Shown in pieces: positions 4,702 through 36,208 of a DNA stretch of 64,000 bases. The notes under the pieces are model-generated. The model saw only the letters and a program-made list of their open reading frames with translations, was not told the origin of the DNA and did no database searches. The position numbers and the translations under genes were made by a program. The stretch spans positions 1,280,001 through 1,344,000 of the forward strand of contig CP000070.1 of NCBI GenBank assembly GCA_000002445.1, written 5' to 3'. The stretch comes from Trypanosoma brucei (lineage: Eukaryota). Each line of letters starts with the position of its first letter. Within the stretch, counting starts at the first letter, position 1.

Positions 4702-7147
4702 TTGAATAATTCCGCGTCACACTCACAACCTCCTACGAGTATCCGAATATTTTTTCTTTAAAAAAAAAACTCTAATCGAAAATGAATCCTTGCCTCTCCC
4801 TTTTCACAACTTTTGCTTGCTGGACTTCTATCTTCCCTTTTGATTCTTTTCTTGACTTCCTTTCTTTTTTTCCCCCCCCCCCTCACTTCCTCCTCTTCCT
4901 CCTCCTCCCTTTCGCCTCGATGTTTCCTTCACAAGTTTTGTTTGACTCACACCGATAACGTCACTCAACCCTGTCTTGTATATTTCTCCTTCCCCTTCAC
5001 AATCAATCAAACCGTATTTCCAATTTTCTTTCGTCCCGTTTCAGTATGGAGACGCCTTCCTTCTCCTCAGATTATTGATGATATTTATCGCTATGGGTTA
5101 TGTAAAGGAGTGAACGCATAAGTAATTATCTCTGCACCTACCTGTGAAAAGACGATCCCTTTCTTCACAATTTATTTTCTTTTTGCTTTCCTGTGCCTTT
5201 CCTCCCTAATTAACAGTGGTGGTCTCGCGAGAGACTTTAAAGAAAAGACCCCCCCCCAAAAAAAAAAAAAGAAGACAAGAGGAGAATCCACTTGGAACCA
5301 CCACTAACACCACACACACACACACACACCACACGTTGCTGCTGCGGCTAACTCGACCCCGAACACAACCAGCGCGCCCACGAAAACCTTCACTAACACG
5401 CGTTCCTCGTGTTTTCTTCTAATTAAGAAAAACAAAAAGAAAAAAAAGGACCAAAGGGGAAAGGCAAAAAAAATAAATAATAATAATAGATAGATAGATA
5501 TCATAGTCGCAACTGCTGAACACGCATGTGCACATTAAAATTATTTTCAAAAAAAAAACACTCATATGACAAGTAATGTAGGTAACTTACAAAATGGCAC
5601 CAGGAAAACAACTTTCTCTTTTTTTTCTTTCAGCATCATAAGCAAGTTTAACCACCGACATACATGAGGAACAAAACCCTTATTTACAGGCAGAAGTCGA
5701 AACTCATAACAAATCTGTTTATGAAGGTTAAAACTTTCGTTGCTATCGGGTCGCAAACTCCACATAAGAATTCATACATAACTTGAAAACGGTATTTTCA
5801 GACAGGCGTAATAATTCAATTAACCCTTCCATTCCATTTTATGCTTCACTGCGAGCCATGCTCTGACGGTTCGCAATAATAGTAATGATAGTAACATATA
5901 TAATTTCTCCTTTCCAAGGGTGAAAATAAAAATAAAATAAGAAGAATGATTTTAAAATGTAATGCACCTACTAAAATTCACGGCTGGCAACCCGAACCCT
6001 TCACTTTTCCTTTTTTTTAAAAAAAACCGCGCATATCGTGAGACGTAAGCACATATATTATTGTTGCACGGAAACAAATCTATGACCTTTGATGGGAGTA
6101 GGAACAATTAAAAAAAAAAAGAAAGAAAAAAAAAAAGAGAAAAACATGCCAATAATATAAGTTTCAAAAAAAAACAGAACCAGGCGGCGGAAGCAGCAGA
6201 AACGGTACATGGAAAGAACAGACATAAATACATAGTCATAACACAATAATTTGACACGAAAAGAAACAAAAAGAAAAAAAAGACGTTGGAACAATACTTG
6301 CGGCACGCCACAGAACACTGAAAACATACATCAATAGGCGACCAAAACTAAAGCCCAAAAGTCAACAACAAAAAAAAAGGAAAAGGAAAAGAAGTAACAA
6401 ACAAAAAAAAAAGAGACACCCAAAGACATTTAATATTTTTTAAACAAAAAAAAAGGGTGATGGGAACAGAAAACATAACAAAACAAAAAGATGCAAAAAT
6501 AAAGTGATGGAAACGACAATGTGCGCAGACAAAAAACAAAAAAACAGTACTCAAATGACATGCTCTCCATTTTTTTTTCATTTCTTTCCTTTCCTTTCCT
6601 TTCTATCTCCTTTTTCTTTCTTAAAAAAACAAAAATAAAAATAAATTGAAAAAAAAACAAACAAGTTATTTGGAAGGGATGGAACGCGGGAGGGACACGG
6701 GTTCACATGACGTACGTTCGTTTTACCTTTTTTCTTTATTTCTCTTTACTTTTATTTTTATTTTCCTTTCATCACATTTTATTTTATTTTTTTTTTCTTG
6801 CCTGAAAATGACCAGTGCTTTTTTTTCCCCCTTACCGCCTCCTCCGCCCCATTTTCCCCCCCCCCTCGCTTCTCCCTGCATGCCAGCTGCGGCAACATGA
6901 AGTACCGCATGGGAGAGAAATAAAATATTAAAAACAAAACAAAAAAGAAAGGGAATGGGGGTAAGAAAAAGTCGTTTTTCCTGTTCTCAATTGTCACATT
7001 CGTCTCTCCACTTCCGTCATTGGTTTCTTTCGTTTTGCTATCCCCTTCCTTTTTTTCTTTTCTTTATTCCCTCCTCCTTCTTTTTTTTTTTTTGAAACCC
7101 AAACCCATACGTTCATCCTCTTAATATTAAAATTTTTAAAAAAACAT

Positions 7148-7176
7148 GCATGCACACACACACACACACACACACA
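7148..7176. repeat. (CA)n microsatellite in the long 4.7-8.5 kb intergenic region
   Basis: Direct read: catgcacacacacacacacacacacacctc. Confidence 0.9.
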
Positions 7177-8489
7177 CCTCATATCATCACAATACATGTT
7201 GTTGTGCTCTAATTTTTTCCCGTATCTGCACACACTTTTGTGTACCTGTATGAATGCGTGCTTCCTATCCTAGTATCTTATATAAATAAGTAAATAAATA
7301 AGAAACATATATAATCCTTTGTGCCTTCTAACACTTCACCTACTGCTCGGCTATTTTATCAACATTTCGATCCCTCCTCTCTTCCCTCATCAATTAATAC
7401 CTAAACTCCGTAACTAAACCTAACTATACGCAAACATGCAGTTTAATATATATATATATATATATATATTCGTGCATTTGTCACCTTCTTTGCGTTCTCT
7501 TCATGCTTTTCATTATTCCTTCTCCAGTTCTTTTCTTTTCTTTCTCTTTCTCTTTACGTCCTTTTACGCAATCCACTCTGTCCTTTACTGTTTCCCTCAG
7601 CAAAGGAAAGGCAAAGAAAAGTCAAAGAAAAGTACCATGCATTGATACCCCTCGCCCCACATGCGCTCACGCACAAGAAAAAAAAAAGAAAATGGAAACA
7701 CAAACACAAACCCACAAGCACAGTGGAAGGGAAAGGGAAAGGAATATAGTGTGGAAATAAATAGGAGAGAAAGAGCGGACGGCGTTCACAGTGAAATTGT
7801 GTTTAAACTCCGTTGCAAGTCGAATAATGATAATAAGTAACAAAGAAAAGAACACAGTGGCTTAAAATCCTCTTGTGAATCAAAGAAACAAAAAAAGAAA
7901 AAGTTTTTCCCACCTACAAGCGTATGTATATACATATAATCTCATATATAAATAAATAAATATATATATATATATATATATTTGTATAGTTACTTATATA
8001 TTTATTTATTTTTATGTCGTAACTGCCATCACGCGAGGGGGCTAAACTCGCTCTCTCCTCCCTATTGTGTTTTCATTTCACCACACAATGTGGTCGTTCG
8101 ATTCCCGCGTATCAACCTTCTTTTTTTTTTCTTTCCTCTCGCACCCATACACACACGCTTACGCATACGTGAACTTCACACATTTCAACGCTATCATGGT
8201 GTCTTTCATTTCACTTCCAACCACTTGCCACATACACACGCACCAAAAAAAAGAAAAATTGAAGCAATAGAGACAAGCCCACCTTCACGCGCCCATTTAT
8301 CTCCGAGTTCCTCGGGAAAAACGCAAATCTAATATGTACATATGCACATATGTTTAGATGCAAGGTCCACCGTGGGTAAATGTCCAAATAAAGACTGAAA
8401 AGATGAAAAGGAATGAAGTCACGCTTCATGGACGTATTCTTCGGTTCATTTTCTCCCACCAACACCAACACCACTACCACCAACACTCC

Positions 8490-14951: not shown

Positions 14952-16061
14952 TCAGTCCACCAGCACCTGGACCTGCTTTTCGCGCTCTTGGCTCCGCCCA
15001 ACAGGCGAATCCGACGACCCCTTCCCGTTTCCGGCTCCGCAATGTCTCCGTGGTGACCGCAAAGCCGGGCTTGTTGTGGCTCCTCCCTGTTCCGCACCCT
15101 CGGCAACCGCCTCCCCACTCACCAACGGGAGTTCGCCACCGTCCCGTGTATCCATACCAGCATCAGCGCAGGCGCCCTTGACACTGTGGTCACACGGAAA
15201 TCGCGGAACCCGTGCGTGCCGCTTCCCCACAATATTGCTGCCTGACTTAAGGGTCCCCTTCTTGGTGTATTCAAAGTTAACGGTGCGGTTGCGGTGGTCA
15301 ATCTCAGCTCCCCGCGCCAGATCCATCGTGTAGTCACCCACTTGGTACACTTCTGCGCAGTGGCAGTGCCTGCTGTTCACCCCGCCGCTCACCTCATCAC
15401 GAAGATACGCCCTGGGACGGTAGTCGCAACTGCCCTTCATAAAGTCGCTCTTTACATCACGCACACCCTGAGGATGATCGTTAGTGCGTAGCAAGAACGC
15501 GTTGTGACTCATGGGCGTAAAATCATAGCCAGCCTGGGAAAGCACAGGTGGTGGGCAGTTCTTGTACAGCACCTGAGGATGGAAACTGCGAGCCGGCGGG
15601 GTGCTGCCAGAAAGATGGTGGCCCCGCCCGTCTACGATGGCGCGCAGCCGGGGAAGCAGTGTAGAACGGTTCTTGAGCGTGCAGTCAAGTGTCTCCTTGT
15701 GGAAGACACCGTTAGGGTCGTATGTAGAAACGCCCTTCAATGTGCTTGGATCGTTCGGATTAGTACGCACGAAGGACTCAAAGGAGCCACAGGAGAACTG
15801 GATGCGAGCCTTTAGGAACCCCCAGTGCTTTGTGTTGGCCTCTTCCACAGCGTCAAGCGCATCACGGTAAGTGGCACCATGCTTTAACACATGTGTTTGC
15901 CATCGAGCAAGTGGATGTACGCGTGTCGAAGTTGTGTTGATATCAGTCATGTTGTAGCCCTTCTTCCGGAGCTCCTTCTTTGGCGGAAGCACCAGAAGTG
16001 AGTAACTCACTGGCTGACTAAGCGAAGGTCCACAGAAAGAACCGGTGGTAGTGGAGAACAT
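14952..16061 (-). CDS. Conserved hypothetical protein; the true start may be the internal Met at MTDINTTS...
   Basis: 369-aa ORF in array orientation. It shows non-repetitive, balanced composition and includes the segment PPKKELRKKGYNMTDINTTSTRVHPLARWQTHVLKHGATYRDALDAVEEANTKHWGFLKARIQF. The C-terminal third is Gly/Ala/Ser-rich. No family assigned from sequence alone. Confidence 0.5.
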   Translation of the reverse strand: MFSTTTGSFCGPSLSQPVSYSLLVLPPKKELRKKGYNMTDINTTSTRVHPLARWQTHVLKHGATYRDALDAVEEANTKHWGFLKARIQFSCGSFESFVRTNPNDPSTLKGVSTYDPNGVFHKETLDCTLKNRSTLLPRLRAIVDGRGHHLSGSTPPARSFHPQVLYKNCPPPVLSQAGYDFTPMSHNAFLLRTNDHPQGVRDVKSDFMKGSCDYRPRAYLRDEVSGGVNSRHCHCAEVYQVGDYTMDLARGAEIDHRNRTVNFEYTKKGTLKSGSNIVGKRHARVPRFPCDHSVKGACADAGMDTRDGGELPLVSGEAVAEGAEQGGATTSPALRSPRRHCGAGNGKGSSDSPVGRSQEREKQVQVLVD

Positions 16062-17056: not shown

Positions 17057-19282
17057 CTACAGGAATGCTTCCAGGTCGAAAACGCTCAGCGGAGCTCTTC
17101 TCGACTGCGGGCCCCGTAACAGATCATTTAACGAGTCTACACGCTTCGCCATTTGTTTCTCTCCTAATGACGTGGTCTTCGAGGGCCAACCTTCCGCATA
17201 CGGCCACGGAAACTCACTCAGGGTGTCACAGTCCAGGACACTGTACTGCGCAGGTGCCTTTTTTTTGGGACGCCTTTGCTGTCGAGGCTGCAGGTTTCGG
17301 GTCGTATGACGCGTGCCCAATTGCCGAATATCCATCCGGATGGCTTTGCCCACAGCATCCGGTATTATATCCACATCATCGATAGCTAGCTGCCGCATTA
17401 ATGAGCCGACCCCGGGTGCGGTCTCAGTGCGGTCGAGTTCGACCTTCTCCCTGCACTCGATTAATTGCTGCTTTTTGAACCACTTGCCGCCACCACCACC
17501 ACCACTGGAGATCAGCGATGCGGCGTAACGCTTAAGGCACGGATGTGAAGATATTGCAAGACCATCCCTCACTGTGAAGTCCATCCCCACCTCTGCGGCT
17601 TGTCGTTTACGGCAGATCCAACCACCTGCGCCCACACTTCGTGTGTTTTGCTCGTGGTGCCCCGTCGCATCGTCATCGTCATAGCCATCCACCTCTTCAT
17701 CACTCCATAGCTCTTGGAAAAGGGGGTTTGGATCCGTTAAACGACCCACAGCAGCGGCCCCGACGCGTCCTCTCTTCATGCCAACACAGGGTCTTCCCGT
17801 CTCTACCTGCGTAAGGATCATATTTGACTCACAGTCGTGGTCTTCCTCAGCATCTTCTCGCTCCATCTCCCCCTGCATTCGACACCCACATTCCTGCTCT
17901 TCTCGCATTTCTTGCCCCTCTTCGGTTGCAGATCGCCCCGTTTGCTCACTGGGAAATCTCTCTGTCTCGTCATATCCTCGTCCCATTTTCTTTTCACAGC
18001 GGTGGTCTTTTTGTTTCGGGTTCGCGTACGCACTCCCTCGCTCAACGGACTTGCAGCTACACGCCGCCGGCTGCTCGCTCTCTCCCGATGGGGAAACATT
18101 GGAGGAGAGAGACAAAGTGGGGAGTGGCTTCAACCACACGACGCTTCGAATGAAGGCCGTGTGCTCCACGCAGCACATGCCCATCGCATATTGTAGCGTG
18201 CGAAGGGGCCCTAAAACAGGAAGCTCCTCCCGGTCGCTGTACAAAACAATGTGATTACAATGCTTTGCGTAAAATGCACGGACTGCGGCTTCGTCCCCAC
18301 AACTGTCAACCGCGTCGAGCAGCGACAAATCCAGAACGGCGCAACCTTGGGTAAAAGGCAGAAACACACGTACCTCATCGTAGAGAAATTGCTGGACGAC
18401 GACAAACGTTGTACCAGCAAACAGTCGCTGCCGTCTTTCCTTTAGTGACGAATCCGAGAGCACAACCTTCAACCCCGCCGAAATCTCACCTGCCGCGGGT
18501 GGTGCTCTGTTGTCTGACACAAAAATTTCGCTGCTCTCGCTACTCAGAAGTGCAGACCACGAGCTGTCAACTGATGGAAAATATGCACGTGGGTCCTGAA
18601 GCTCCTTTTGCGGGTTGCTCTCCCTGCCCTCCTGCAGCACCTTGAAGTACTCAGGGGTTACAATGTGCGAGGAGAAACGACACAACACAGCAACGGCAGC
18701 GGGTGTTATGGTTAAGTGTGGGGTAACGAGATAATCTGCCAGAGCGATATCCGACACGGTTACAGCACCGCATCGGCTCATCCATTCATACATGCATCCA
18801 TCGTTGTAGTCGACTGTGAAGACGCGCATGGGGCTCCATCTCAAAGAAAGGGTCGTACCACGAGCCCCCAAAGTCATGGAAAACCCCCTCCACAGCGCAG
18901 AGTTAACAGGAACACAACACGAATCACCCCTGGACAATTTAACACGCGTCGGAGTGGCACCGGAGAGTTGAACATCCCTCTCCACGGCGTGCGTACTGTC
19001 ATTGTCACCGTCGATGCCGCCACGATTGGGGGAAGAGCGAAGTTCGGTACCGTACTTTGATGTGTCGGTGACAATAAGAGGCAGAAGATCCTTTCCCTCC
19101 TCGTTGCTGAGCTCCTGAGGTTGGGCAAGTGAGGGAAGCAATCCTACCCTTAAAGTGAGATGCTTTCTGCTGATACTGGGATCCCCCGCCAGCGTTATGT
19201 GACACTCCTTGCTACCTACCGTGTAAGTGGCGCCCCCCACAAGCCAAAAGCGGGCCTGACCATTCATAAACACGATCCACAT
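17057..19282 (-). CDS. FHA-domain plus BRCT-like DNA-damage-response protein; candidate NBS1/nibrin orthologue
   Basis: N-terminal FHA signature FWLVGGATYTVGSKECHITLAGDPSISRKHLTL...SKYGTELRSS (G-K/R...S-R-x-H...N/G-T). A BRCT-like block follows (LFAGTTFVVVQQFL...HIVLYSDREE...WLKPLP). A basic KWFKK motif resembles the NBS1 MRE11-binding NFKKFKK motif. The acidic FxF C-terminus (SVFDLEAFL-COOH) resembles the NBS1/Ku80/ATRIP PIKK-binding tail. Confidence 0.5.
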   Translation of the reverse strand: MWIVFMNGQARFWLVGGATYTVGSKECHITLAGDPSISRKHLTLRVGLLPSLAQPQELSNEEGKDLLPLIVTDTSKYGTELRSSPNRGGIDGDNDSTHAVERDVQLSGATPTRVKLSRGDSCCVPVNSALWRGFSMTLGARGTTLSLRWSPMRVFTVDYNDGCMYEWMSRCGAVTVSDIALADYLVTPHLTITPAAVAVLCRFSSHIVTPEYFKVLQEGRESNPQKELQDPRAYFPSVDSSWSALLSSESSEIFVSDNRAPPAAGEISAGLKVVLSDSSLKERRQRLFAGTTFVVVQQFLYDEVRVFLPFTQGCAVLDLSLLDAVDSCGDEAAVRAFYAKHCNHIVLYSDREELPVLGPLRTLQYAMGMCCVEHTAFIRSVVWLKPLPTLSLSSNVSPSGESEQPAACSCKSVERGSAYANPKQKDHRCEKKMGRGYDETERFPSEQTGRSATEEGQEMREEQECGCRMQGEMEREDAEEDHDCESNMILTQVETGRPCVGMKRGRVGAAAVGRLTDPNPLFQELWSDEEVDGYDDDDATGHHEQNTRSVGAGGWICRKRQAAEVGMDFTVRDGLAISSHPCLKRYAASLISSGGGGGGKWFKKQQLIECREKVELDRTETAPGVGSLMRQLAIDDVDIIPDAVGKAIRMDIRQLGTRHTTRNLQPRQQRRPKKKAPAQYSVLDCDTLSEFPWPYAEGWPSKTTSLGEKQMAKRVDSLNDLLRGPQSRRAPLSVFDLEAFL

Positions 19283-19354
19283 GGCAATTTTTCAACGCTG
19301 ACAGGCACCAACCAGCAATTATTTCTTGCCAAATCTTCCTTGCCCTGCCAAGCA

Positions 19355-19385
19355 AATCACACATTGATAAAGAAGAAAAAAAAGA
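19355..19385 (-). promoter_or_regulatory. Polypyrimidine tract (CTTCTTTTTTTTCTTCTTTATC on the minus strand) about 80-100 nt upstream of the 17057-19282 start; likely trans-splicing/polyadenylation coupling signal
   Basis: Pyrimidine run on the coding (minus) strand, followed by AG dinucleotides before the ATG at 19282. This is the canonical trypanosomatid SL-acceptor architecture. Confidence 0.4.
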
Positions 19386-19604
19386 AGCCAGTCCAGGGAG
19401 GTGAAACAATGGGAAACTAATGAGTAAAAGAAACATTTAATGATACTTATTTCGTATAACATTAAAGAAGCTACACGAGTGCTCGCCTGGGGTGCCCCCG
19501 TCTTAACAATGACCTTTGGACAAGTATGCGACGACAACGCAGCATCAGCCTCCTCTGTTACCTTTACAAGGAACCCATCTTCCTCATGTCCCATTCCACC
19601 TGTT

Positions 19605-20030
19605 CTAAGACACCTTCAAGCCAACAATCAGAGAAGCGATTACGGCAAGTGCACCACACCCAAGAACCCAAGAAAGAAACACCTGGTCGCCGACATCATC
19701 AGGACACATGGACAACTCAGATATGCAACTGCTCCCGGGAGCCGTAGTATTCGGGAAGACACAGGCGATTCCACCCTCCATCGTAGGGCAAAAAAGTCCA
19801 CCATTTTTAATGCAATCACCACAAGAAACCTCTTGAAGAAAGCAATCAGTGAAATTTAAGCAAGCAGTGCCACCACAGGAGCAATCACCCTGCGTTTCAC
19901 ATGTCATATCCACAGGGCACCAGCGATTTGATTCGTTGACTGACGTACACTGGGTGCACGATGAAGGCAGAGCACCACCCAGTATAGAAACACCCATTAA
20001 CATCAGTGTCTGCAGTAATAACATTGCCAA
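19605..20030 (-). CDS. Small Cys-rich predicted surface protein (signal peptide + 14-Cys ectodomain + hydrophobic C-terminus/GPI signal), 141 aa
   Basis: N-terminal hydrophobic leader MAMLLLQTLMLMGVSILGGALP. 14 cysteines and 3 N-glycosylation sequons in about 100 aa. C-terminus DDVGDQ-VFLSWVLGCGALAVIASLIVGLKVS is typical of a GPI-addition or TM signal. It lies in array orientation in the 1-kb gap between RNase H1 and the FHA gene. A polypyrimidine tract lies about 100 nt upstream on the minus strand (20100-20160). Confidence 0.45.
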   Translation of the reverse strand: MAMLLLQTLMLMGVSILGGALPSSCTQCTSVNESNRWCPVDMTCETQGDCSCGGTACLNFTDCFLQEVSCGDCIKNGGLFCPTMEGGIACVFPNTTAPGSSCISELSMCPDDVGDQVFLSWVLGCGALAVIASLIVGLKVS

Positions 20031-20339
20031 TCTCGCCCTTTTTCGACGGCGGTGCTGTCAGAAGGTCACCGTTTATTGCTATTAACGAACACACCTTTGC
20101 CCTTAATCCTAAAACGGGTGTGAGCTTCAGTAGAACACACAAAAAAAACGGTGTAAGAAGGTGTCTAACGCGAAGGACGAGGGAAGACATGCCCAGCCAT
20201 CTGAGTGAGCACTTCAAAGATAGTGAGGAGGCTGCGAACAGTACAACGAAAATAACGCAGCCTTTCCTTTGGTTTACAGCCACAGAGAATCACTTGCGTC
20301 ATGTAACCAATCAGTGATGGCGTTCCTGTCTGTGCCACG

Positions 20340-21305
20340 TTAGCCAAAGGGCGATTCACAGGCCTCAACTGCCAAGCGGTCTGCCATTTCATTCCCATAC
20401 ACACCTGCGTGCCCCGGGACGTGCTTCAACTGCAACGCGACAGCGCGTGCAGCTATCGCTGCTAAACTAGCCTTGAAGCGGAACTCCATAGTGAAACGTT
20501 CCGCGCACCGGGATAAGTGCCTATTACGCAATTTCGTCAATTGACTCCACAAGTCGATGTTAGCAACGTCGCCTCCACCGGCAGTTTTAAAACCGTTGCG
20601 TTCCCACCGGTGCAAGTAGGAATTGACACCCATTACGGTGTACTTGCTATCACTGTATACACACAAATTGTAGCAAGGGTGAGAGTCCAACGCAACGCGC
20701 AAGACATGGATGAGCGCGGAGAGTTCCGCACGCTGATTGGTCTGGGGTTCGTGAGCTGGAAGAGGGAATTTAAAGTTACGGCTGTCACCGTCGCCATAGA
20801 ATCCACCGAAGCCAGCACGTGGTCGTCTTTCACGGCTTCGACTTCCGTTATTTCTGCAGGCCCCATCAACATACACAACAACCGCCTCCCGTTTCCGGGC
20901 CTCTACCCATTCTGGGGAGAGAACCTGCTGCTTACTTTCGTCATCCACTTCATTACCGTCATCCGCAGCATCCACCTCCACAGCATCTAACGTCACATCA
21001 AGTGAAAGCGCGCGCTTTACACCCACCAAAACAGGCGTGTGCGAGTCAGCCACAAGTGATGTGCCGACACTTCCCGGCTCAACGTCCTGCACCCCACTAG
21101 CATAGGCCTGCGCCTCCTGTAAAGTCAAAAAAGACTTAAAACGGGCTCCAGAGAACCCTGAGACCTGCTTCTGGCACTCCTCCCAGGTACTGAAAACACC
21201 GGTTTGTCTGCCAACCGCCACCGCGTAAAACCTTTTCTTTCCCATGGACGTCGACACCACCGACGAAAAACTAAGTTCTGCTATTTTCCAGTATCTATTG
21301 ATCAA
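20340..21305 (-). CDS. RNH1: Ribonuclease H1 (hybrid-binding domain + RNase H catalytic domain)
   Basis: HBD: FYAVAVGRQTGVFSTWEECQKQVSGFSGARFKSFLTLQEAQAY. RNase H domain: VVVYVDGACRNNGS...TNQRAELSALIHVL...VYSDSKY...HVPGHAGVYGNEMADRLA, carrying the DEDD catalytic residues. Confidence 0.9.
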   Translation of the reverse strand: MINRYWKIAELSFSSVVSTSMGKKRFYAVAVGRQTGVFSTWEECQKQVSGFSGARFKSFLTLQEAQAYASGVQDVEPGSVGTSLVADSHTPVLVGVKRALSLDVTLDAVEVDAADDGNEVDDESKQQVLSPEWVEARKREAVVVYVDGACRNNGSRSRERRPRAGFGGFYGDGDSRNFKFPLPAHEPQTNQRAELSALIHVLRVALDSHPCYNLCVYSDSKYTVMGVNSYLHRWERNGFKTAGGGDVANIDLWSQLTKLRNRHLSRCAERFTMEFRFKASLAAIAARAVALQLKHVPGHAGVYGNEMADRLAVEACESPFG

Positions 21306-26637: not shown

Positions 26638-28035
26638 TCACACCGGATGATGTGTAGCTGCTATGCGTTCTAATGTGCAATACATTTTATTTTCCTCGTC
26701 CTCGCCTAGTAGATCAGAGAGAGTAGAAGTTGAGGGCAAAAACATCGGGCCCTCGTAAACATCGTCCCGTCCCCTTTTGCGGTCAAAGAGCATGCGCCCC
26801 ACGACGGAAGCAGGAAGTCCCTTTATACTGGAGTTTTGTGTCACCGAAGTCAGCATTGCACTGCGGCACATCAGTGTCAACTTGTCACAATCACGGCACG
26901 AGCTGCTCGCGTTAAAAAATGAAAGCTCCATAGGGATGGATTCAGTTAATGCACTATGCAAACTCGCCGCGACATTCTGGTACACAGTTTCCCCTCGCCT
27001 CATAATTTTATTCGGCTTAAAGGGGGTTGTTAAGTTCCCATACCCGTCTACCAACCCGCCTTTTCGGCAGCCAGTCGGCAACAACGTTCCCAGCAACCGA
27101 GGGCAGAGGAATGGGGTATTGTCGGGTGCTGCATTGGCGTTAGACCCTATTAGGGAAGTGCACACAGCAGCTTCGTGTACAATTGGCCCAATAAGACTAG
27201 CATAGGTCGCCTCACATTGAGCCGACACACGTACAGTTCTCTGTGCCCACGAGGAGTTTGTTACGTAATTGCCCAACGACCTCGCATCTTCGGGTGAATA
27301 CACATGAAGGAGTACCAAATACTTCCATATGACTGGTTTTAGCACACATAAGGAACGCGAAGGGGACCTTTCGTTAGCACCTATAGTTATTATTATAGCG
27401 TTTTCGTATGATATCTCCTTGCAAGCCGTAGCAGACTCCTCCACAACGAGGTAGCATCGTGGAAGAACGTCTTCCAACAACATTCCCACCTTTTCATTGA
27501 GAACGCTGGAAGAGCTAGCACGGATAATGTTACCCTCAGCCGATACTGTGTTTCGCACATAGCCCACGACTGCTTCATAACTGTCCTCAGCGGAGCCATC
27601 GCCAGTAACATGCTCCACAACCTCAGTCGACATGGGTAAGCACCAGCTTAGTGGTACGGGCGGATGTCCTAAACTGCAAATACATCCCAATTGCTGGTAA
27701 AGACATCGGCGATCTCTTGTTTTGGGGTACAGTGACGTCAAAAGCGTAATAGCAAACGCCTTGGATGAGGCACGGAAAGGTCCTAGGGGACCGCTATAAA
27801 GGTGTAGCATTTCCCACAGGGGTATGCAGACTGCAGTAGCCAGTGCAGGGCCTTGGTCTCCACAGGACACTAAATCGCGGTGAACGGCGACCATAAAGCG
27901 GTTATAGAGGTCAAGGAGCCGGAAAATAAGCCTCTCTGAGTCGCCGCCAGTTGTCCATTCAATTAGGTTACCGTTTATCTCATCGACCAATTGCTGAGCG
28001 TTGTCATTTTCACCCATATCAAACCCGAGATACAA
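26638..28035 (-). CDS. Hypothetical protein, 465 aa (first gene of the minus-strand array)
   Basis: Long ORF with complex, non-repetitive composition in array orientation. No recognizable motif. Confidence 0.55.
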   Translation of the reverse strand: MYLGFDMGENDNAQQLVDEINGNLIEWTTGGDSERLIFRLLDLYNRFMVAVHRDLVSCGDQGPALATAVCIPLWEMLHLYSGPLGPFRASSKAFAITLLTSLYPKTRDRRCLYQQLGCICSLGHPPVPLSWCLPMSTEVVEHVTGDGSAEDSYEAVVGYVRNTVSAEGNIIRASSSSVLNEKVGMLLEDVLPRCYLVVEESATACKEISYENAIIITIGANERSPSRSLCVLKPVIWKYLVLLHVYSPEDARSLGNYVTNSSWAQRTVRVSAQCEATYASLIGPIVHEAAVCTSLIGSNANAAPDNTPFLCPRLLGTLLPTGCRKGGLVDGYGNLTTPFKPNKIMRRGETVYQNVAASLHSALTESIPMELSFFNASSSCRDCDKLTLMCRSAMLTSVTQNSSIKGLPASVVGRMLFDRKRGRDDVYEGPMFLPSTSTLSDLLGEDEENKMYCTLERIAATHHPV

Positions 28036-31000
28036 AAAGGAAAACGCCTTTTAATTCAGTACTCTTTCCTAAATCTGACACGTGCAAAAAATAAAACACC
28101 GGAAACCCCAGAGCGCATATACCCCCGAATTATCATTAGTCGTAGTTAGAGTTAACACTTTTTTTTAAAAAAAGGAATGGCTACAACACCACCAAACAGT
28201 AGGGAGCATCGGCACACAAATCCCGTAGTGTGAGAACAATCAACACCGCGGATGAACAACGTTGTCAATCTCTTCCCCCCATCACCTCCAAAAAAAAAAA
28301 AAAGCAAACAACACCTAAACAAAAAAAAGCGTGACTCTGTGTCCCCCAAACTATCTCAGTGGCACTTAAACAAATTTGAAAAGAAGACGATTGTACACTG
28401 AAAGGGAGCGACCGTCTTCACATTTCTGCTGTTACATATTGAAATAGAACTAACCATGATTATTTTTTAAAAAAATAATAACAAAAACAATATTAGCCTC
28501 GTATACACGCGGACGGTTGTAGGTAGAATCAAAAAACGCCATGACTGCACTAAATTGGGTAATACTACACGAATTCAGCGAAAGAAAATAGAAACAATAT
28601 TGTTAAGGTAATAACACTAACGGATTCCACCATCACCACCGAGTAGCAACAACAACGAAGCGCAAGGGACCACCTTCGAGCCAAATCATCTTAAAATTAA
28701 CAGACGAAAGGCTCTTCACAAAATCATTTGAATTGGTTCATCTAAAGCGAATTCAAAATTCAAACCATCTTTTTGGCCTTCTGACAATACTCCACAGCCT
28801 CACCTGCGTCCTGAGCGTCTCCGCTTGCACAATCCGGCTGGTATTTATTAAATTTCGCGCATGGAATAACGTTACCACACCAAAATTTATTTGTTCCATA
28901 GTTTATCCACGGTTTGTGAAGCACATCGTTATATATGCTCAACTTAAAGTCGCTGGCGGAGCAACAAACAAAAGAAAAAATAGTTGACTTAAAAAAGGGG
29001 GAACAGAATCTGACCTCCCCAGTGTCTCAGTCACATCGGAGTCAACCGCCTGGAAAATACACAGTTTTCTTTGAAATGTGTATAGCAAATTCGTGTGCTG
29101 CGTCAGCCCCCGCTGTAAGCTCTAAAAGAACGACAATGGCAACAAGCAATTTAGTTTGTAGCAAAATAAGTGGAAGATCGGCATGGACTCCACAACAGTT
29201 AGGCAATACTCTATACCAGACGCGAAGTAGCTACAATATAGCACCGAAGGCGGCAACTCCGTGCGCATTTATTTTTTTTTTAAGCAGCAAATACAATAAC
29301 GCATGTCACTTGTGATGTATGACTTTAAAAGAAGCTGAAATTCGGAGGAGGAACAATCAGTCCTCTAAAAATCGCAACAAATTTAATAGGGGTAGTTGTT
29401 GCATCAGCTTTTCCGCATCAGTTGTAACAAATGTATGTACGGAGAGTCCAATCAGTGCTTGAACAGCAACTCACCCCCATTCCATAGTGCTCGGAAAAGA
29501 CACTAAGGACGCAGCTTATCTAGCACAACCCCTTTTTTTAAAAAAAAAAAGAAACAAAAGAGGTTTTAAAGCCTAGGGTAGCAACAGCAGCCAAACTAAA
29601 CGCACGGATAGCCGATATGACGGCAAGCTACCCGAACAGAAGCAAAGAGACGGAAATTTTTACATATCGTCACAATACCCCCTTCCTCAGCAATGATTTG
29701 AATTTTAAATCAAAAAAAACGTCCGGTACAGCACAAAGTAAAAAATATGATAAAACTCCCCGCATGTGGCGGCAACGCAGTAACTACCTCGCCCACCGAA
29801 ATAATCAGCAAAGGCGTTCTATTTTTTTTTAATGTATACACAAGCACTTACACGAGGGAAGAGTACAATATTTAGCGAAAGACCGGCGGGATACTAACAG
29901 GTAGAAGTCACCTGCAGAGGGGACACTGTCACCACTTGCACCAACGTTTTTTTTTAAAGGTATAGAAGAAAAAAAAGGACATTTAATATTACAACAGTAT
30001 CTACTTATCACAACACCTTTGGGCACACCTTGGTATGGGACAAAAGGGGGGGGATCAAAAATGTACGAAAAGCTTGCAGTTGAACACATCACTAGCATCT
30101 ATCCGGACCCCATATAGATCACATTTCCGAGCTAATTACCGCGCTAGTAACTACACATGTCAGTTTAGCATCACATATTTGATAGTCACCAAGCACAAAC
30201 AGTTGAGGATAAATACTGTTGGATGGACCCCAATATACAGATATTTATTCACTAATGAATAATAAGTTACAAGCGAATAAAAAGCATGTGGAAAGCTCCA
30301 ACATGGCCTCATCCAACTTAATATGTCAGCTGAAGAGTAGTGGTAAACGAGGGTTTGCACCGCTAACATTAATAAGGAAACAACAACCATGTCCCACAGA
30401 AGACCGAGGCTTTGCCTCTGGGGAGAGAGCAAGAGGGTAACGCCCGCGTGACTGTTTACAACTATTACAGTCAAGAAACGCACGAGCAGCAAAACCATCT
30501 AAACGAAGATAGATCAGTGTTACGCTCCCGTGAGAAAAATAAACTGCTACGGCGACATTCTCCCATTTCAACCACCCAAAGAGCCCATTCGTCCATCATG
30601 TCACCTGGTTGTCCCAAATACACCTGGAAAGCGAAACTTACAGCTGGGCATCAGCGGGTCACAAAGAAGGGAAAATCCAACAGAAACTGAAGGCCTCAAC
30701 AGCACGTGGTTTACTCTAATGTCGTTCTGGCTACAATCAGACGATCAGTAATCAGCTATCAGATAGAAACGGAAGGAACAAATAGCGCTAAAAGCCCTAC
30801 AGTTCCCTGTTTTCTCCACGTCGCAGCGAGCTACCCACTCCTGCACAGCGCGGATATTACACGCAACTACAGTACGTCACGAATGTCCCCGCACAAAAGA
30901 AAAAGTAGTAAGGGCGGTGAAAACGTCAAAGTATTTCTAACCCCATAATACGAACGCACAATCACTTCAACGAAAAATTGTTGACAAACCCTCATTATAT

Positions 31001-32913
31001 CACGAAATGCGATTGTGCGATATAACACATTCCAAATATCGAATTAGTCTGCACAAAATTGCCCACCGTAAGTTGCATCAATTTTTTCCTCGCTGTTGCT
31101 ACAGCAGACCATCGATTCCAAGTACGTTAATATGCGCACGGATAGCTGTCCATGCGGGTTTCAGTGAGGTGTTGCACTTGAACAAGTTCACTTCCGGTCA
31201 TCTTTCGATGACACAGAGCGGAACATCTGCATATTTAAAAAAGCGTGAACAAGTAAGTAAAAAAGCCGAGCCGCCTCGGTGATGCGTGACAGTAGCGCGA
31301 ACGTTAGTGGTTCGTTTCTTCTTCCGGTGATATTGATATTAAAATCCCAGAAAGATAATTCACGCTACAGCCAATCTTCCCTTTGCGCGGACACCTTCAT
31401 TACCCCATCAAAAAGATATTACACCGGTTAAATCGAAAGGGTTTGTAAAATCAACAGAACTTTTGCGAAGGGCGATAGGAACGGGAAGCACATCGACGAA
31501 CATTCGCATAGAAGCAGTGATCAGACCCTTCGTAAGCTGCATAATCGTTAAGAAAGAGATGACACACCTCTCCCTCGTTGTGCACAACCGCACCTAGCAC
31601 CACGAGATGCACGTACAGTTGTGGAGCGTATCAGCAGGGAAAATGACAGGCAGGCCCGGCACATGTACATTATAGCGCAGAAGGGAGGGGTGAAGCGGCA
31701 CCCACCCAGCGCTCCACAGTTCCAGACCACGCAACGTTTGGACCCTTTCAAACAAAGGCCCCGTACCACGATAACGTCCCACCCATCGCACGCCGCATCG
31801 TGGTCGGCACCCACTGGCCCCAACTCATACAACCTAAAGGATACCAACGCGCAGTACCGGGCTAAGCGAGGGCAAATTCCCCATACGCGCCACATCTGCC
31901 GTTCTCGGTAAATACGGGCCGTACGTGCACAGGTTGTCAAGCACCCCTCCAGTCTTCAAGCGCAAAGAACAAAAACTTCGTTCCTCCTCCGCCGCAGCAT
32001 TCCTACTGCGACGCCAGCGGCCGGCGCAGGGCGAACCTGCGGCAGCTGACCATCCCCCACGCCCCACGACAAGCTCCCATTCCACCACCATGCGGCCATG
32101 CCCCAGTGGTACAACACCGACGGAACTGACGCACCCCCATTTTCACTGGCGAATTTCGAATGCACCAATGGCGCGCCACGCACGGTGGCCTTTACAGTGT
32201 GAATCCGCTCCATCCTCCGGGAGAGAAGGTGCACGGAGTGAGCAAACACCGTCGACCAAACTATCCGTCCCGAAACCTTCAGAGGCCTGAAGACAAGCAT
32301 TTCTTGTTTTTTCGTGGTACTCCCCGCCTTGCACTACCACACCGTCCCGACAGCGACCCTCTGCGCATCTTGGTTGCCACACCCACCCTATTGAATGGAG
32401 GAGTCCCTATTGCGAGCGGTGAGCCTAAACTAACCGCACAGGTGGCCCCAAATGGGCAAAGCACGTTGTCGTATTTCCCCCTTCTTCTTAATATGTGTGT
32501 CTTTCCCTCCTTATACATGGCATTTGCTTTTGCTCACCCTGAAGGAGGGGCCCTTTTTCTTGGTCTCGCTTCTTATTGTTGTGTTTTGGTCAAATAGTGT
32601 TTTCCCGTGAGCGTACCACGTTGTAACACCATCCCTTCAAATCATTTAATCACTCATGCGTGCGATGTCCCGGAGGGCTCGATTTCTCTTCCATCACGCG
32701 GGATGACCCTCCCCTGACCACAAGCTGAACAAAACATCCTATTGCTTGTTGCACCTCAAGAGGTGATGGGTCGGCCGCGCCTTCTTCAGGATGTCGCTAC
32801 CGGTCCTGTTGGACAGCCCTCCGTCTACAATGCTCCCCGTCGGACCATGTAACATTTCCATCGTGCTTTTATCATTTATGAATGTTGAGAATAACCACGG
32901 TCCGGCCTCGTAG

Positions 32914-32941
32914 CGCACACACACACACACACACACACACA
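32914..32941. repeat. (CA)13 microsatellite (reads TG on the minus/sense strand of the left array)
   Basis: Direct read: gcgcacacacacacacacacacacacac. Confidence 0.9.
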
Positions 32942-35199
32942 GCTGCACCAACCCCTGATGGAATCTCCAGAATACTCATGTGACCCAGTCCGGTGAAAAA
33001 ACCGCTCCTAACTTTACCAGCATGAGCCTGGTTATTATGGACACTTCTTGCGCACACAACTCCACGACTCATACAGGCTTCGTTGTGTGGCCCGGTTACT
33101 TTGGCGCCTTCCTCAACGCATACCTCTACGGGTCACCATAAGATTTAGTGAAGGGCGCGTTATCCCCCGAAACGGTATGCGCCCGCTTTGGTAGTTTAAA
33201 CTTCAATGAAGTCATCTTTTGATCACTAGGTATCGTGGACAGGTCCAGCCCGTGGGGTTACATTTCAGCTTCCGTCAACCCTCCTCTGTTTGCGTTAGCA
33301 TAAGGTTGCCGGCGGGGAAAAGGTTTAATATATTCTGTTTACATTGGTTAGTAACTCAGTGGATCTATCGTTCACGGCCATGAACAGAACAAAGTCGGAC
33401 ACCGTTCTTTTTGCCACACGGTACGGCTATATGGGGCCTTCCCAAAGTACTGTCGGTTTATAATGACTCTCGCCATCTTGTTGGGTGAAAGTTTCTTACC
33501 CACCACATAATTTGTAGATTAGAAAAAAACTTTCTCGGCCGCTCAGAAAATGGCAACATTTCCCATGGGTTCAAACTAACGAGTGTAGAGTATGAATTTC
33601 ACCGTGGCGAGCACCGTCGATTCGTACCAAGTTGCGTCTCCAATCAACTGAGTTATGGATCCTACTGCCAAATGTTGGCGCAGAAACCTTTCTCTTTTGT
33701 ATACGCAACTGACAGTCAACAGAGTCCACAAATCTCCTTTGAATCAACTACTGCATTGCTTTGTAATTGGCGCAGGTGGTCGCTGTTAGTTTTTGACGAT
33801 GCCATGACAGAAATCCCCTTGCTTTCCCCTAACGCCAGTTCAATAGCTTCACACTTCCACTTCCCGACACTCCTCAGCATTTTCGATTCCCGTTGAGTAG
33901 TTGTTTACCTGTAGTTTAGCCCGTTTACCTCCATGTGCTTTAGTTGGTACACCATACACGCCATTTTCTTCAGCAGAAGAAGGAAATTTCGATCTTCCTG
34001 TGGCAACAATCGGCTCAACCATGCGAAACAGTTTGTGTTTCGCGTCTTCTCAACCTCTGGCACGTTCTTTACCGGGGCATCCGAGAGTTTTGTCTGTCGT
34101 TGGTGGCACATTTTTGACCTTGGTTGCGGCTACCGCTCCTTCTATCAGCGTCTTGCCGTTTATCACTGGTGGAAGGGTTGGTCCCCATTCTGGGGCGTGC
34201 ACCGCGTTCGAAAACTTGCGGCCGCTTTTTTTCTGTTGCCGACGATTTGGGTACATGATCTTTCCATTTTTTAAAGGCTAGTACATGCATGACATGTATC
34301 CTAACTTCAAAGAGGTCGCCTTTCCCTTGCACCTGTGGGAGATTATCAGCTTCCTAGTTTAGTTCTGAAAAACTACTGTTCATAGTAAGAGAAATTACTG
34401 GTCTACAGCTATGGATATTCCTCACTAGAGAGTCGCACATTGCTACGTGCATCCTGTCCCCATTTCAGTTTATACACGCTTCCATCTTGCAGAGCACTTT
34501 CCTCTTCCCTGTTACCCACCGTTTCTTGGATTATATACAGGTTGCCTCTTTTGATGAGAAGTGGGAGCTTCGATGAGCGGTTGGCATTATTTTTTCAACT
34601 CCTGACCCGGCGATGGCATGGAAGACTCTCGAACTGCGGTTGTAGTTCAGCCTGAGCGCGGCGTTCTTCTGCGGCACATCACAATTCTATTGGGAACTAC
34701 TGTCCGGGGCGAATTTGGTTCTTCAATTTTTTCTCCTTGCAATTGTCCCTGTGTGGACGACTCCCATTTCGTCATCCACAAACCAATTTGAGGTTGTCTT
34801 GCCTCTGTGAGTTCGTGAGATATGTTTGTCTTATGTAGGATGGTGGAAAATAACGTTCACCCGGTTAATGATCTCAGCCTTTCCGTGCCCGTTGTGGCGT
34901 TCTCCAGAAAGCGGTTGGGCGCAACGGTGAGCTTTACATGGCGGTCAACCGCCACCATGGTGGTTGCGTCTCCCATCAATTTCGGAGTTGACGACCCCTT
35001 TAGTAACTTCCACTACGTCCAGGACGAGGCATAGGCTCTGGGGACTCCGTTTTCAGTGCGTGCGTGTCCGCAACGCTTATATCCCATCACATTAAAGCAA
35101 AGGCTTTCCCCTCGGCTGAACCGCGTTTCTCAGGGAACGCAGAAAGTCACTTCGCCCTTTCGCAACGTTTCCACCGGGACGACCTCCTTCGATTGGGGC

Positions 35200-36100
35200 C
35201 GGAACATTTTATATCTCACTGAGCCGCGCGGGTGCCGGAACCAGTGGATTGACTGGGACCTTCGGCAAGTAACAGAGTGAGGCCGCGGGGATCTTGCGTA
35301 TGGACTTGTTGGCATGTGCTTCGGTGCAACTCGAGCTGCGTTGGACCCCCGGTGGCCGGCAGTCCGCCGTGCGTCGGCGCGGCCGCGGGTAACCCGAGGC
35401 AATTGCCATTCCATTCTTTCTGGGAGGGCTTTGACACGTCGGGGTTTATGTGTACGGCCGGCGGCTAACCTAACTGCCACGAAAGAACAACTCCAATAAG
35501 TTGTTTCCGTCTTGATTCTCGAGGTTTCAGGGATCCCGTATTAAACCATCCGGCGTGGGGGCGCACGGTCAAAGTCTTCTTTCCACATGCGGTGTGATTG
35601 ACTGCGAGGTCGTGGGTACCCGGAGATAGTTTGAGGGTAGCTCCCCTTTGTAAGCTTTCCCCCCGCCCGCGCTACGGTTACTTCCGTCTTCTTTCCACAA
35701 TGGGATATTCCCAGTGGAATGGGTTCCGGGGCCTTATCACCTCTCGTGCGGGAAAATTCTGACTCTTTGTGCCCTGTGGGGTTGTCTTTGATGACGGGGT
35801 CGGAGTTATCTTGAGACAATTTCACATTTCCTTCCCCCAATACGTTCTGTCGGGCGATGTGTTCTCGTACGGTTGCCCCTGCGTTGCGTTCAACTGGTTG
35901 ATCCTCGCGCCCGTTGCGCCTTACACGGAGTTTTGAGCCCCCCTTCAGGGTTCTGGGCGTTACCGGCAGCTGGGTGGTGGTTGCGGCTCCTTGCCATGAG
36001 TTTCATGTCCAGTGGACGCTGGAAGACATCTGAGGCAGCGCTCATTTTGATAGTATTGGCTATGTTGCTGTTTCTGACGTGTGTGTGGGAGGCTTCGCTT
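35200..36100. other. GC-rich island inside the strand-switch region (short direct repeat GGCCGCGGG at about 35281 and 35381); function unknown
   Basis: Local GC is visibly above 60% against an A/T-rich surround. No ORF with coding character. No match to known snRNA, 7SL or rRNA that I can recognise. Confidence 0.3.
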
Positions 36101-36184
36101 AGGTCGCTGATGGTGTTGCCGCTTTTTAAAAGTTCGGTCGAAAGGCGCGATGGGGGTGAGGCGCCGTGTGTGCACATAAACTGT

Positions 36185-36208
36185 GTTTGTGTGTGTGTGT
36201 GTGTGTGA
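36185..36208. repeat. (GT)11 microsatellite on the plus (sense) strand of the right array
   Basis: Direct read: tgtttgtgtgtgtgtgtgtgtgtgtgatg. Confidence 0.9.

Follow-up and report, generated by a model that had tools for sequence, protein, structure and literature searches.

The 64,000-nt window of Trypanosoma brucei DNA analyzed here contains, between the genes for RNase H1 and an FHA-like protein, a small Cys-rich ORF on the minus strand, raising the question of whether it is a gene and, if so, what kind of protein it encodes. The ORF is almost certainly a real coding gene, Tb927.7.4925, which is already catalogued and therefore not new in itself; it is single-copy and trypanosomatid-specific. 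The best overall explanation, held with somewhat better than even confidence, is that its product acts as a type I membrane glycoprotein with a PSI-like ectodomain.

Gene Identity and Coding Potential

The CDS of Tb927.7.4925 lies at 19605..20024 on the minus strand, as do all features described below unless stated otherwise, and comprises 139 codons plus a stop (420 nt), with the start ATG at 20024 and the stop codon at 19605-19607. A preliminary description of the locus had counted 141 aa from 20030; the codon there is TTG, a start only under the bacterial code. Reading in frame from the preceding stop codon, the first ATG met is that at 20024, so the protein has 139 aa. The description was right to place the ORF in a gap of about 1 kb, as 1057 nt separate the RNase H1 stop (20340) from the ATG of the FHA-like gene (19282), and right about the two neighbors, both of which are on the minus strand. 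Upstream, the RNase H1 gene (20340..21245) encodes 301 aa identical to TREU927 XP_846116, with Pfam matches to RNase_H (1.5e-32) and Cauli_VI (1.8e-22). Downstream, Tb927.7.4920 (17057..19282) encodes a 741-aa protein named 'FHA domain-containing protein' in UniRef, whose weak Pfam FHA match (E 0.027) is under the Pfam cut-off. Scans of the whole window for tRNA and Rfam families were empty, and the scan for bacterial promoters and terminators is irrelevant to trypanosome DNA.

In Data Set S1 of PMC7568655, the entry after Tb927.7.4920 (2226 nt) is Tb927.7.4925, a 'hypothetical protein, conserved' of 420 nt, in exact agreement with the ORF lengths of 2226 and 420 nt in the window. An annotated protein identical to the Tb927.7.4925 product is found in T. 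equiperdum OVI between the same neighbors (TEOVI_000394900), one that is 99% identical is annotated in T. b. equiperdum, and the gene model is also annotated in T. vivax and other trypanosomatids. The suggestion that automated annotation may miss such an ORF holds for the old GenBank/RefSeq protein sets of TREU927 and DAL972, from which the protein is missing, but not for TriTrypDB, T. equiperdum or T. vivax. Neither the ID Tb927.7.4925 nor the ortholog locus tags are mentioned in the main text of searchable papers, nor did the ID turn up in the supplementary files, possibly incomplete, that accompany TrypTag, the surface proteome and two papers on ribosome profiling. The literature searched yielded no expression, localization or phenotype data for the gene.

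Length alone is weak evidence for this ORF, since 3.3% of 5000 dinucleotide shuffles of the gap also contain one this long (139 aa or more from an ATG); the coding case rests on Cys composition, codon usage and conservation. Cys makes up 10.8% of the Tb927.7.4925 ORF compared to 2.45% of the long ORFs of the window. At 0.142 bits/codon, the codon score of the ORF lies within the range of the window's known genes (0.168 +/- 0.055) and exceeds that of all other ATG ORFs of at least 100 aa that are not themselves likely genes. In comparison with the T. vivax ortholog, pN is 0.41 and pS 0.74. Codon score, Cys content and cross-species conservation together bear out the initial proposal of a genuine coding gene for a small Cys-rich protein.

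Conservation in Trypanosomatids

A HMMER scan of 1.84 billion proteins recovered full-length orthologs in T. vivax (8e-26), T. theileri, T. rangeli and the Leishmaniinae, and tblastn with the ORF matched the syntenic loci at 5e-29 to 4e-13. Besides TEOVI_000394900, the orthologs include DPX39_070059800, T. vivax TRVL_01694/CCC49172, T. theileri TM35_000401320, T. rangeli TRSC58_04700, L. donovani CGC20_20215 and ABB37_01887 from Leptomonas pyrrhocoris, which UniRef names 'Surface antigen-like protein'. These hypothetical proteins have the Cys framework and the genomic neighbors in common with Tb927.7.4925, and the small gene stands after RNase H1 and before the FHA-like gene and then a 369-aa gene in T. 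vivax, T. theileri and L. donovani. The preliminary description had staked the gene on the ORF and its Cys spacing being conserved at syntenic loci, and this is what the comparison shows: across 16 trypanosomatid orthologs none of the 14 ectodomain Cys varies, nor do W35, P37, M40, G75 and G76, and synteny extends out to Leishmania. The non-salivarian orthologs differ in being 170-290 aa long, with N-terminal regions longer than that of T. brucei and, between C88 and C100, a low-complexity insert plus an additional Cys pair, leaving T. brucei and T. vivax with the most compact version of the family.

The only credible phmmer matches were trypanosomatid orthologs or ortholog-like sequences, the other hits at E <= 1e-3 being long repetitive proteins judged spurious. 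Among the long multi-repeat matches of the exhaustive HMMER scan, a 1453-aa repeated junk ORF (P0013) and an adhesin-like repeat protein (P0019) were set aside as low-complexity or repeat artefacts. Family profile searches with two alignments (A1 and A3) added no lineage beyond trypanosomatids. Judged by these sequence searches, the databases covered contain members of the family in trypanosomatids only.

Protein Features and Membrane Anchor

The N-terminus carries a predicted signal peptide (19968..20024), residues 1-19 (MLLLQTLMLMGVSILGGAL...), with likely cleavage after G-G-A19 according to the -3/-1 rule. Residues 1-19 form a hydrophobic h-region (Kyte-Doolittle about 1.9), and AF2 models residues 2-13 as a helix and 13-17 as a linker of low pLDDT. 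What had been called a textbook signal peptide is better termed atypical: the hydrophobic region is present, but a basic n-region is absent.

The protein has 15 Cys, of which 14 are in the ectodomain, as first described (positions 23, 26, 36, 42, 48, 50, 55, 61, 68, 71, 79, 88, 100 and 107), and one, C123, is in the hydrophobic tail. The three N-glycosylation sequons originally noted were recovered as N30 (NES), N57 (NFT) and N92 (NTT), and the N30 sequon is present in 13 of the 16 orthologs. Two PSI-like modules can be delineated. Module 1 (19854..19967, residues 20-57) has the pattern C23-x2-C26-x9-(W)C36-x5-C42-x5-C48-x-C50-x4-C55 and contains the N30 sequon. Module 2 with a membrane-proximal C-x6-C (19686..19853, residues 58-113) has C61, C68-x2-C71, SGG-x-(F/Y)C79, C88 and C100-x6-C107, and then an acidic PDDVGD; its G75-G76 and Cys are invariant, and its helix-hairpin pattern is alike in both AF2 models. 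No Pfam family was found for the T. brucei protein at E <= 10 or for the 16 orthologs, and Pfam models of trypanosome surface families (VSG, ISG, ESAG, procyclin, BARP, GP63 and others) gave no match.

The C-terminus, too, is built broadly as previously outlined: after an acidic region (PDDVGDQ) comes an uncharged segment, here measured at 22 aa (residues 115-136), and then KVS. The segment (19617..19682; VFLSWVLGCGALAVIASLIVGL) is a predicted transmembrane helix with Kyte-Doolittle values of up to 2.33, and the K-V-S tail with the stop codon occupies 19605..19616. Tb927.7.4925 is very probably a secretory-pathway membrane protein. Whether it is held by a GPI or a TM anchor had been left open, with GPI listed first; a C-terminal membrane anchor stands, and it is probably a TM helix. 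Judged heuristically, the hydropathy, the AF2 helices, the K/R after the segment and the conserved lumenal sequon N30 all fit a type I single-pass topology. A basic residue, Lys or Arg, directly follows the hydrophobic segment in 15 of the 16 orthologs and one ortholog (P0016) carries a 44-aa hydrophilic tail; both features fit a membrane-spanning helix under the positive-inside rule and favor a TM anchor over GPI.

GPI anchoring is very common in trypanosomatid surface proteins, and the strongest competing explanation is that Tb927.7.4925 is a GPI-anchored surface glycoprotein. The C-terminal segment would then be an attachment signal cut within P-D-D-V-G-D (omega about D110, omega+2 = G112), leaving a Cys knot of about 90 aa on the outer leaflet. 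The small and acidic PDDVGDQ stands immediately before the hydrophobic segment and includes a small-residue D-V-G triplet, the T. brucei tail is only 3 residues, and in Leishmaniinae the first Arg comes after a hydrophobic core of only about 15 residues, all of which would suit such a signal. Small GPI-anchored Cys-rich proteins, whether of the Ly6/uPAR/CD59 type or GPI proteins of trypanosomes, are also alike in size, signal peptide, many disulfides and a near-terminal hydrophobic segment; however, neither the three-finger fold nor any other GPI-protein fold appears among the structural matches of Tb927.7.4925. Against GPI attachment, in addition to the K/R residues and the P0016 tail, the T. 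brucei segment is 22 residues, which is enough for a bilayer, the spacer from omega to the hydrophobic core is only about 2-4 residues, and AF2 gives a single continuous helix at 114-138 with pLDDT above 90. GPI anchoring is thus considered unlikely, although it retains a real share of the probability.

Predicted Fold of the Ectodomain

The ectodomain likely adopts a PSI-like fold, as judged from structural models. Two AF2 models were obtained (pLDDT 75.5 and 74.4), and both display PSI-type elements, namely a short helix and a small beta-sheet Cys knot. In a Foldseek search against the PDB the best five matches were plexin chains, but none was below E = 0.3. Using MET and integrin beta3 PSI sequences that were checked against the PDB, hhalign matched module 1 to the C..C...WC motif of PSI, in register but at a probability of only 8-14%, while module 2 or the whole ectodomain gave no signal against PSI. 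An internal repeat was not convincingly detected by hhalign of module 1 against module 2. The Pfam PSI model (PF01437) matched none of the 16 orthologs at E <= 1, and a PDB sequence search with the family profile returned zero matches; in the PDB search with the single protein, suppressyn at E 0.45 was discarded as a chance match.

In comparing module 1 to the eight-Cys framework, C1 to C8, of the PSI domain (PF01437 / SM00423) of MET, plexins, semaphorins and integrin beta, C2, C3, W-C5 and three to four later Cys are present in PSI-like spacing, whereas C1 and C4 are missing in all 16 orthologs and N33 occupies the place of MET C538. C1 and C4 are joined as one disulfide in the MET PSI domain. 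By analogy with MET, the predicted pairs would be C26-C42, C36-C48 and C23-C50/55. Module 2 has CxxC ... (F/Y)C, with a profile similarity to PSI that is undetectable. The setting of the modules differs as well, in that the two modules of Tb927.7.4925 sit directly on a TM helix, and Sema, IPT, hybrid and EGF domains are lacking.

PTTG1IP / PBF is a small animal type I glycoprotein with a signal peptide, a single PSI domain and a TM helix, and is thought to act by binding partner proteins. It would share the plan proposed for Tb927.7.4925, a small single-pass type I glycoprotein whose ectodomain is wholly a PSI-type Cys knot. PTTG1IP differs in that its PSI domain is single and its cytoplasmic tail is substantial and carries sorting motifs, compared to two PSI-like modules and a 3-residue tail in Tb927.7.4925, where a tail this short makes such motifs impossible. 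The exhaustive phmmer scan gave no credible match outside the ortholog set that would relate the two proteins, and no paper linking PSI domains to kinetoplastids was found in the literature searched.

Proposed Mechanism

The proposed mechanism takes splicing and polyadenylation, ER entry and TM retention from sequence features, and the fold from models. The Tb927.7.4925 mRNA would be trans-spliced near 20126 and polyadenylated about 100-125 nt past the stop. The 139-aa precursor would enter the ER via its N-terminal signal and be cleaved around A19, and the lumenal or extracellular part of about 94 aa is predicted to form two PSI-like modules, each with a CxxC helix and then a (W/F/Y)C beta-hairpin. 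Seven disulfides from the 14 invariant Cys may lock the ectodomain, with at least the conserved N30 probably N-glycosylated. A single C-terminal helix, residues 115-136, would retain the protein in the membrane as type I, leaving Lys-Val-Ser alone on the cytosolic side. With essentially no cytoplasmic domain, the protein would be unable to signal or be sorted alone. PSI modules of plexins, MET, integrins and the PSI-only PTTG1IP serve in the partnering role proposed here, and by this analogy Tb927.7.4925 may tentatively be viewed as a rigid module, knotted by disulfides, that pairs with another membrane or lumenal protein and serves for binding or as a spacer. As the family also occurs in monoxenous insect trypanosomatids (Leptomonas), beside Trypanosoma and Leishmania, a core secretory-pathway or surface function is more likely than adaptation to the mammalian host.

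A different function would follow if the CxxC motifs, C23-TQ-C26 and/or C68-GD-C71, served in thiol-disulfide exchange, whether in the ER lumen or on the surface, making Tb927.7.4925 a redox-active membrane protein. Both motifs are invariant in the 16 orthologs and lie at helix N-termini in the models, and in the integrin beta3 PSI domain the CxxC motifs reportedly have thiol-isomerase activity, which is counted as a lead in this direction. However, the invariant Cys are even in number and the in-register PSI positions are disulfide-bonded structural sites in MET, suggesting that all 14 are paired, and Pfam and structure searches found no thioredoxin-like fold or Pfam match. A redox function is therefore held to be improbable, more so than GPI anchoring, and the partnering module is the preferred, if tentative, reading.

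Transcript Signals and Competing Reading Frames

The pyrimidine-rich sequence reported about 100 nt upstream on the coding strand was located as two tracts, 20191-20167 and 20161-20131, with AG dinucleotides after them at 20166 and 20126. The tracts and the first downstream AG (20126/20125) form a candidate spliced-leader acceptor (20125..20191), a sequence signal that would give a 100-nt 5'UTR, from AG 20126 to the ATG, with no upstream ATG. A candidate polyadenylation zone at 19479..19504, 100-125 nt 3' of the stop, is marked by contig ends from five independent run assemblies. In the same run series, contigs of the next gene begin at 19344 and 19310, just past a polypyrimidine tract (19392-19366) and an AG near 19346. 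The ERR79291xx runs are cited in no searchable paper, and their nature as RNA-seq is for this reason inferred only. No spliced-leader sequence was present in the contigs examined, and because the contigs covering the ORF run on without a break into RNase H1, they are compatible both with a separate mRNA and with an extended 3'UTR of RNase H1.

Two other ORFs share the space. The overlapping minus-strand ORF at 19897-20283, which had been said to compete with the gene, does overlap it but needs a GTG start, being 97 aa from its first ATG (20190); an antisense ORF on the plus strand (19440-19859) is equal in length to the Tb927.7.4925 ORF. The codon scores of the two are 0.022 and -0.036, and they have no homologs by tblastn (best E = 0.2); both were dropped for poor codon score and lack of conservation. 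The least probable explanation of the locus is that the Tb927.7.4925 ORF is a chance frame within the RNase H1 3'UTR or intergenic DNA, or that one of these two ORFs is the real product; the shuffle frequency, the equally long antisense ORF, the unbroken contigs and the lack of published expression data for Tb927.7.4925 in the literature searched would agree with it, but it is effectively refuted by the conservation of the ORF, with invariant Cys spacing and synteny in Trypanosoma, Leishmania, Leptomonas and Porcisia, and runs counter to the gene-like codon score and to the position of ATG 20190, upstream of the likely splice acceptor.

Significance

As the model is already in TriTrypDB and several GenBank trypanosomatid annotations, the gene call adds nothing; the modest value lies in characterizing one of the many kinetoplastid genes labeled 'hypothetical protein, conserved'. 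Taken with the structural models, Tb927.7.4925 is probably a compact, glycosylated and probably transmembrane protein with a seven-disulfide, PSI-like ectodomain, in strict synteny from Trypanosoma to Leishmania. If surface-exposed and invariant, it may be a candidate conserved non-VSG antigen or a handle on a membrane complex; if it is instead an ER/Golgi accessory factor, it would be a kinetoplastid-specific part of the secretory pathway. A more speculative possibility is that the family represents unrecognized 'PSI-only' membrane proteins across trypanosomatids, each a pair of degenerate PSI knots mounted on a TM helix and devoid of a cytoplasmic domain. They would be obligate ectodomain partners of another conserved complex of the secretory pathway or surface, or possibly its CxxC redox subunits. 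If true, such a family would place the plexin-semaphorin-integrin module, usually discussed as animal, in an early-branching protist lineage.

The small gene and its neighbours

Tb927.7.4925, in this chromosome segment of the Trypanosoma brucei group, is housed on the minus strand of the 1057-nt gap between the RNase H1 ORF (20340-21245 (-)), identical to TREU927 XP_846116, and a 741-aa ORF (17057-19282 (-)) for the protein named "FHA domain-containing" in UniRef. The small ORF ends at 19605 and has its first ATG at 20024, with no in-frame ATG upstream, giving 139 aa (420 nt including the stop). A preliminary description had placed a 141-aa ORF here; the ORF itself stands, but its start at 20030 is a TTG, reported because ORF finders apply the bacterial code. 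Likewise, the reading frame said to compete for the same space (19897-20283 (-)) is present, but with a GTG start, and 97 aa remain when it is read from its first ATG (20190). The polypyrimidine tract noted about 100 nt upstream corresponds to two pyrimidine-rich tracts on the coding strand (20191-20167 and 20161-20131), followed by an AG at 20126, 100 nt upstream of the ATG with no ATG between.

A length of 741 aa for the FHA-like neighbour is shared by the window, T. b. gambiense and T. equiperdum, and TriTrypDB gives 2226 nt. In the GenBank TREU927 entry (XP_846115) it is only 606 aa, which points to a revised start codon. The protein matches Pfam FHA at E 0.027, below the Pfam cut-off.

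Conservation and existing annotation

Scanned exhaustively with HMMER, 1.84 billion representatives yielded full-length relatives, the named sources being T. vivax, T. theileri, T. rangeli, Porcisia, Leishmania donovani and two Leptomonas species. At the T. vivax, T. theileri and L. donovani loci RNase H1 is directly followed by the orthologue, then by the FHA-like homologue and a homologue of the 369-aa gene; a lack of conservation in syntenic regions, named earlier as something that would refute the gene, is clearly not what is seen in these three species, where synteny holds. The 369-aa ORF (14952-16061 (-)) is itself conserved in these three species, in syntenic position; its codon score (0.161) is gene-like and it lacks a Pfam domain. 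The T. theileri orthologue TM35_000401320 (6001-6561 of its locus) has the annotated start MGILLAEAVLDAGMISTC and no convincing signal peptide, and several Leishmaniinae models (P0020, P0023-P0025) carry long basic N-terminal extensions ahead of the hydrophobic stretch; judging from these sequences, the start codons of both may be mis-assigned.

An identical protein is found in T. equiperdum OVI (TEOVI_000394900, "hypothetical protein, conserved") and a 99%-identical one in T. b. equiperdum (DPX39_070059800). The T. brucei ORFeome paper (PMC7568655) describes its Data Set S1 as tabulating every gene in the ORFeome libraries; Tb927.7.4920 is listed there at 2226 and next Tb927.7.4925, "hypothetical protein, conserved", at 420. 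These are the exact lengths of both window ORFs, and the gene is therefore in TriTrypDB. GenBank/RefSeq accessions from TREU927 or DAL972 are present in the protein clusters of both neighbours and absent from that of Tb927.7.4925; that such a gene is easy to miss was true of the original annotation and is no longer so. As the small ORF is an existing gene model with annotated orthologues, the finding as first stated was already known. Searches by gene and orthologue names found no functional literature on it, and the new elements are only a tentative PSI-like fold assignment and the argument for a transmembrane over a GPI anchor.

Cysteine framework and probable membrane anchor

The protein has 15 Cys, 14 in the ectodomain and C123 in the hydrophobic tail, and sequons at N30, N57 and N92, in agreement with the Cys-rich, three-sequon ectodomain described earlier. 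The N-terminus is hydrophobic, but the basic n-region of a textbook signal peptide is absent; at the other end the acidic region and hydrophobic tail described earlier are present, as PDDVGDQ, a 22-residue uncharged segment and then KVS. None of the 14 ectodomain Cys varies across an alignment of 16 orthologues, nor do T27, W35, P37, M40, G75 and G76. The framework opens with C-x2-C-T-x7/8-W-C-P-x2-M-x-C-x5-C-x-C-x4/5-C, continues with x5-C(F/Y)-x5/6-C-x2-C-x2-S-G-G-x-(F/Y)-C-x8..25-C and closes with C-x6-C before the hydrophobic segment. The compact form is that of T. brucei and T. vivax; non-salivarian orthologues are longer (170-290 aa), with a low-complexity insert and one extra Cys pair. 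The N30 sequon is kept in 13/16 orthologues, N92 is common to T. brucei and T. vivax, and N57 occurs in T. brucei only.

Either a GPI or a transmembrane anchor had been proposed. Lys/Arg directly follows the hydrophobic segment in 15 of the 16 orthologues (YRAAR, LRGGKT, SRARGF, R-L-L-x and similar), one orthologue carries a 44-residue hydrophilic tail after it, and the 22-residue T. brucei segment is modelled as a single confident helix (pLDDT > 90); because of these features, sequence and model favour type I transmembrane anchoring that leaves a minimal tail in the cytosol. A GPI-anchored form is less likely, although D-V-G would be a plausible omega site and the segment is followed by no more than 3 residues.

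Fold of the ectodomain

No Pfam family was found for any of the 16 members, and PDB sequence searches returned nothing meaningful. AlphaFold2 with the orthologue alignment gave models of moderate confidence (pLDDT 75.5 full length, 74.4 ectodomain alone), both showing twice a helix starting at CxxC, then a beta-hairpin with (W/F)C at its end or start. Plexins ranked top in Foldseek at non-significant values (E at least 0.3). By hhalign, with the MET and integrin beta3 sequences checked against the PDB, module 1 (residues 20-57) falls in register with the "sC.qC...WC" core of the MET and integrin beta3 plexin-semaphorin-integrin (PSI) domains (P 0.002-0.004, probability 8-14%; EGF control P 0.58), while module 2 (residues 58-113) gave no signal against PSI. 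In this register MET C538 (canonical C4) faces N33, and MET C1 (C520) has no Cys counterpart; these two form one disulfide in MET, and their joint absence is what might be expected of a PSI knot that is genuine but degenerate. The family fails a sequence-based PSI membership test; even so, the ectodomain probably consists of two PSI-like modules. That the product is instead a redox-active CxxC protein appears quite improbable.

Coding status and candidate transcript ends

Dinucleotide shuffling of the gap (5000 rounds) produced an ATG ORF of 139 aa or longer in 3.3% of cases, and an antisense ORF of the same length with an ATG start (19440-19859 (+), 139 aa) overlaps the gene's 3' half. ORF length alone is not convincing, since that antisense ORF has a negative codon score (-0.036 bits/codon) and no conservation (tblastn to syntenic loci, E >= 0.2). 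Tb927.7.4925 (19605-20024 (-)) scores 0.142 bits/codon, in the range of the window's 17 long genes (0.168 +/- 0.055, 140-codon windows), and is conserved at E 5e-29 to 4e-13; 19897-20283 (-) scores 0.022 and is not conserved (E >= 0.4). The remaining ATG ORFs of at least 100 aa reach about 0.08 at most, except a few themselves likely genes. Cys content is 10.8%, against 2.45% in the long genes; in comparison with T. vivax, pN is 0.41 and pS 0.74, with synonymous sites saturated. Codon score, Cys content and conservation are decisive: this is a conserved, syntenic coding gene, and a chance ORF, for all that the shuffles and the antisense frame allow it, is scarcely credible.

Five independent run assemblies (ERR7929157, ERR7929161, ERR7929162, ERR7929163, ERR7929164), probably of RNA-seq, give contigs that cover the small ORF together with RNase H1; four of them, the longer ones (5.2-6.9 kb), extend over the S9 peptidase gene too. 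All five end at 19479-19504, 100-125 nt past the stop. In this series the contigs of the FHA-like gene begin at 19344 and 19310, just after a strong pyrimidine tract (19392-19366) and an AG near 19346, and finish in a run of T ahead of the next gene. Around both genes these boundaries match where polyA and spliced-leader processing would be expected, and the uncovered interval 19345-19478 would, if this is RNA-seq, be the expected gap from polyA site to next acceptor. As the contigs are continuous with RNase H1, a discrete mRNA and a long RNase H1 3'UTR cannot be told apart. Across the series (L007-L013, ERR7929157-164), contig ends or starts fall at 19479-19504, 19310-19344 and 16323; the 5' end of L012 carries 18 non-genomic bases that are not the spliced leader.

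Other features of the window

Long ORFs are all (-) to the left of about 28000-38000 (last end 28017) and all (+) to the right (first start 37986), with roughly 10 kb between them free of long ORFs, GC down to about 0.39-0.44 and a GC-skew sign flip near 35-36 kb; this strand-switch region is probably a divergent polycistron start. Two 260-aa ORFs (43906-44688 (+), matching ribosomal protein L19e, and 45590-46372 (+)) share a codon score of 0.259 and look like a tandem duplication; a 118-aa ORF between them (44892-45248) has a gene-like score (0.191) and no Pfam match. The ORF 834-1517 (-) (227 aa) has a gene-like score (0.135) and no Pfam domain, and 5001-8000, between 853-aa and 1418-aa minus-strand ORFs, is markedly low in GC (0.34-0.38). 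tRNA and Rfam scans of the whole window gave no matches.

Proposed role

Between its hydrophobic N-terminus and a C-terminal hydrophobic helix, the product carries 14 invariant Cys and a conserved sequon. It would be imported into the ER, cleaved near A19, folded through seven disulfides into two PSI-like knots, N-glycosylated and anchored as a type I membrane protein whose cytosolic part would be KVS only. As it would lack any cytoplasmic domain, one possible role, put forward tentatively, is that of a rigid ectodomain that serves for binding or as a spacer, in partnership with a second protein of the membrane or the lumen, similar to the partner-binding or spacer action of PSI modules and PTTG1IP. 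Because the family is also present in monoxenous Leptomonas, it may be speculated that it serves trypanosomatids in a core function and is not a mammalian-host adaptation.
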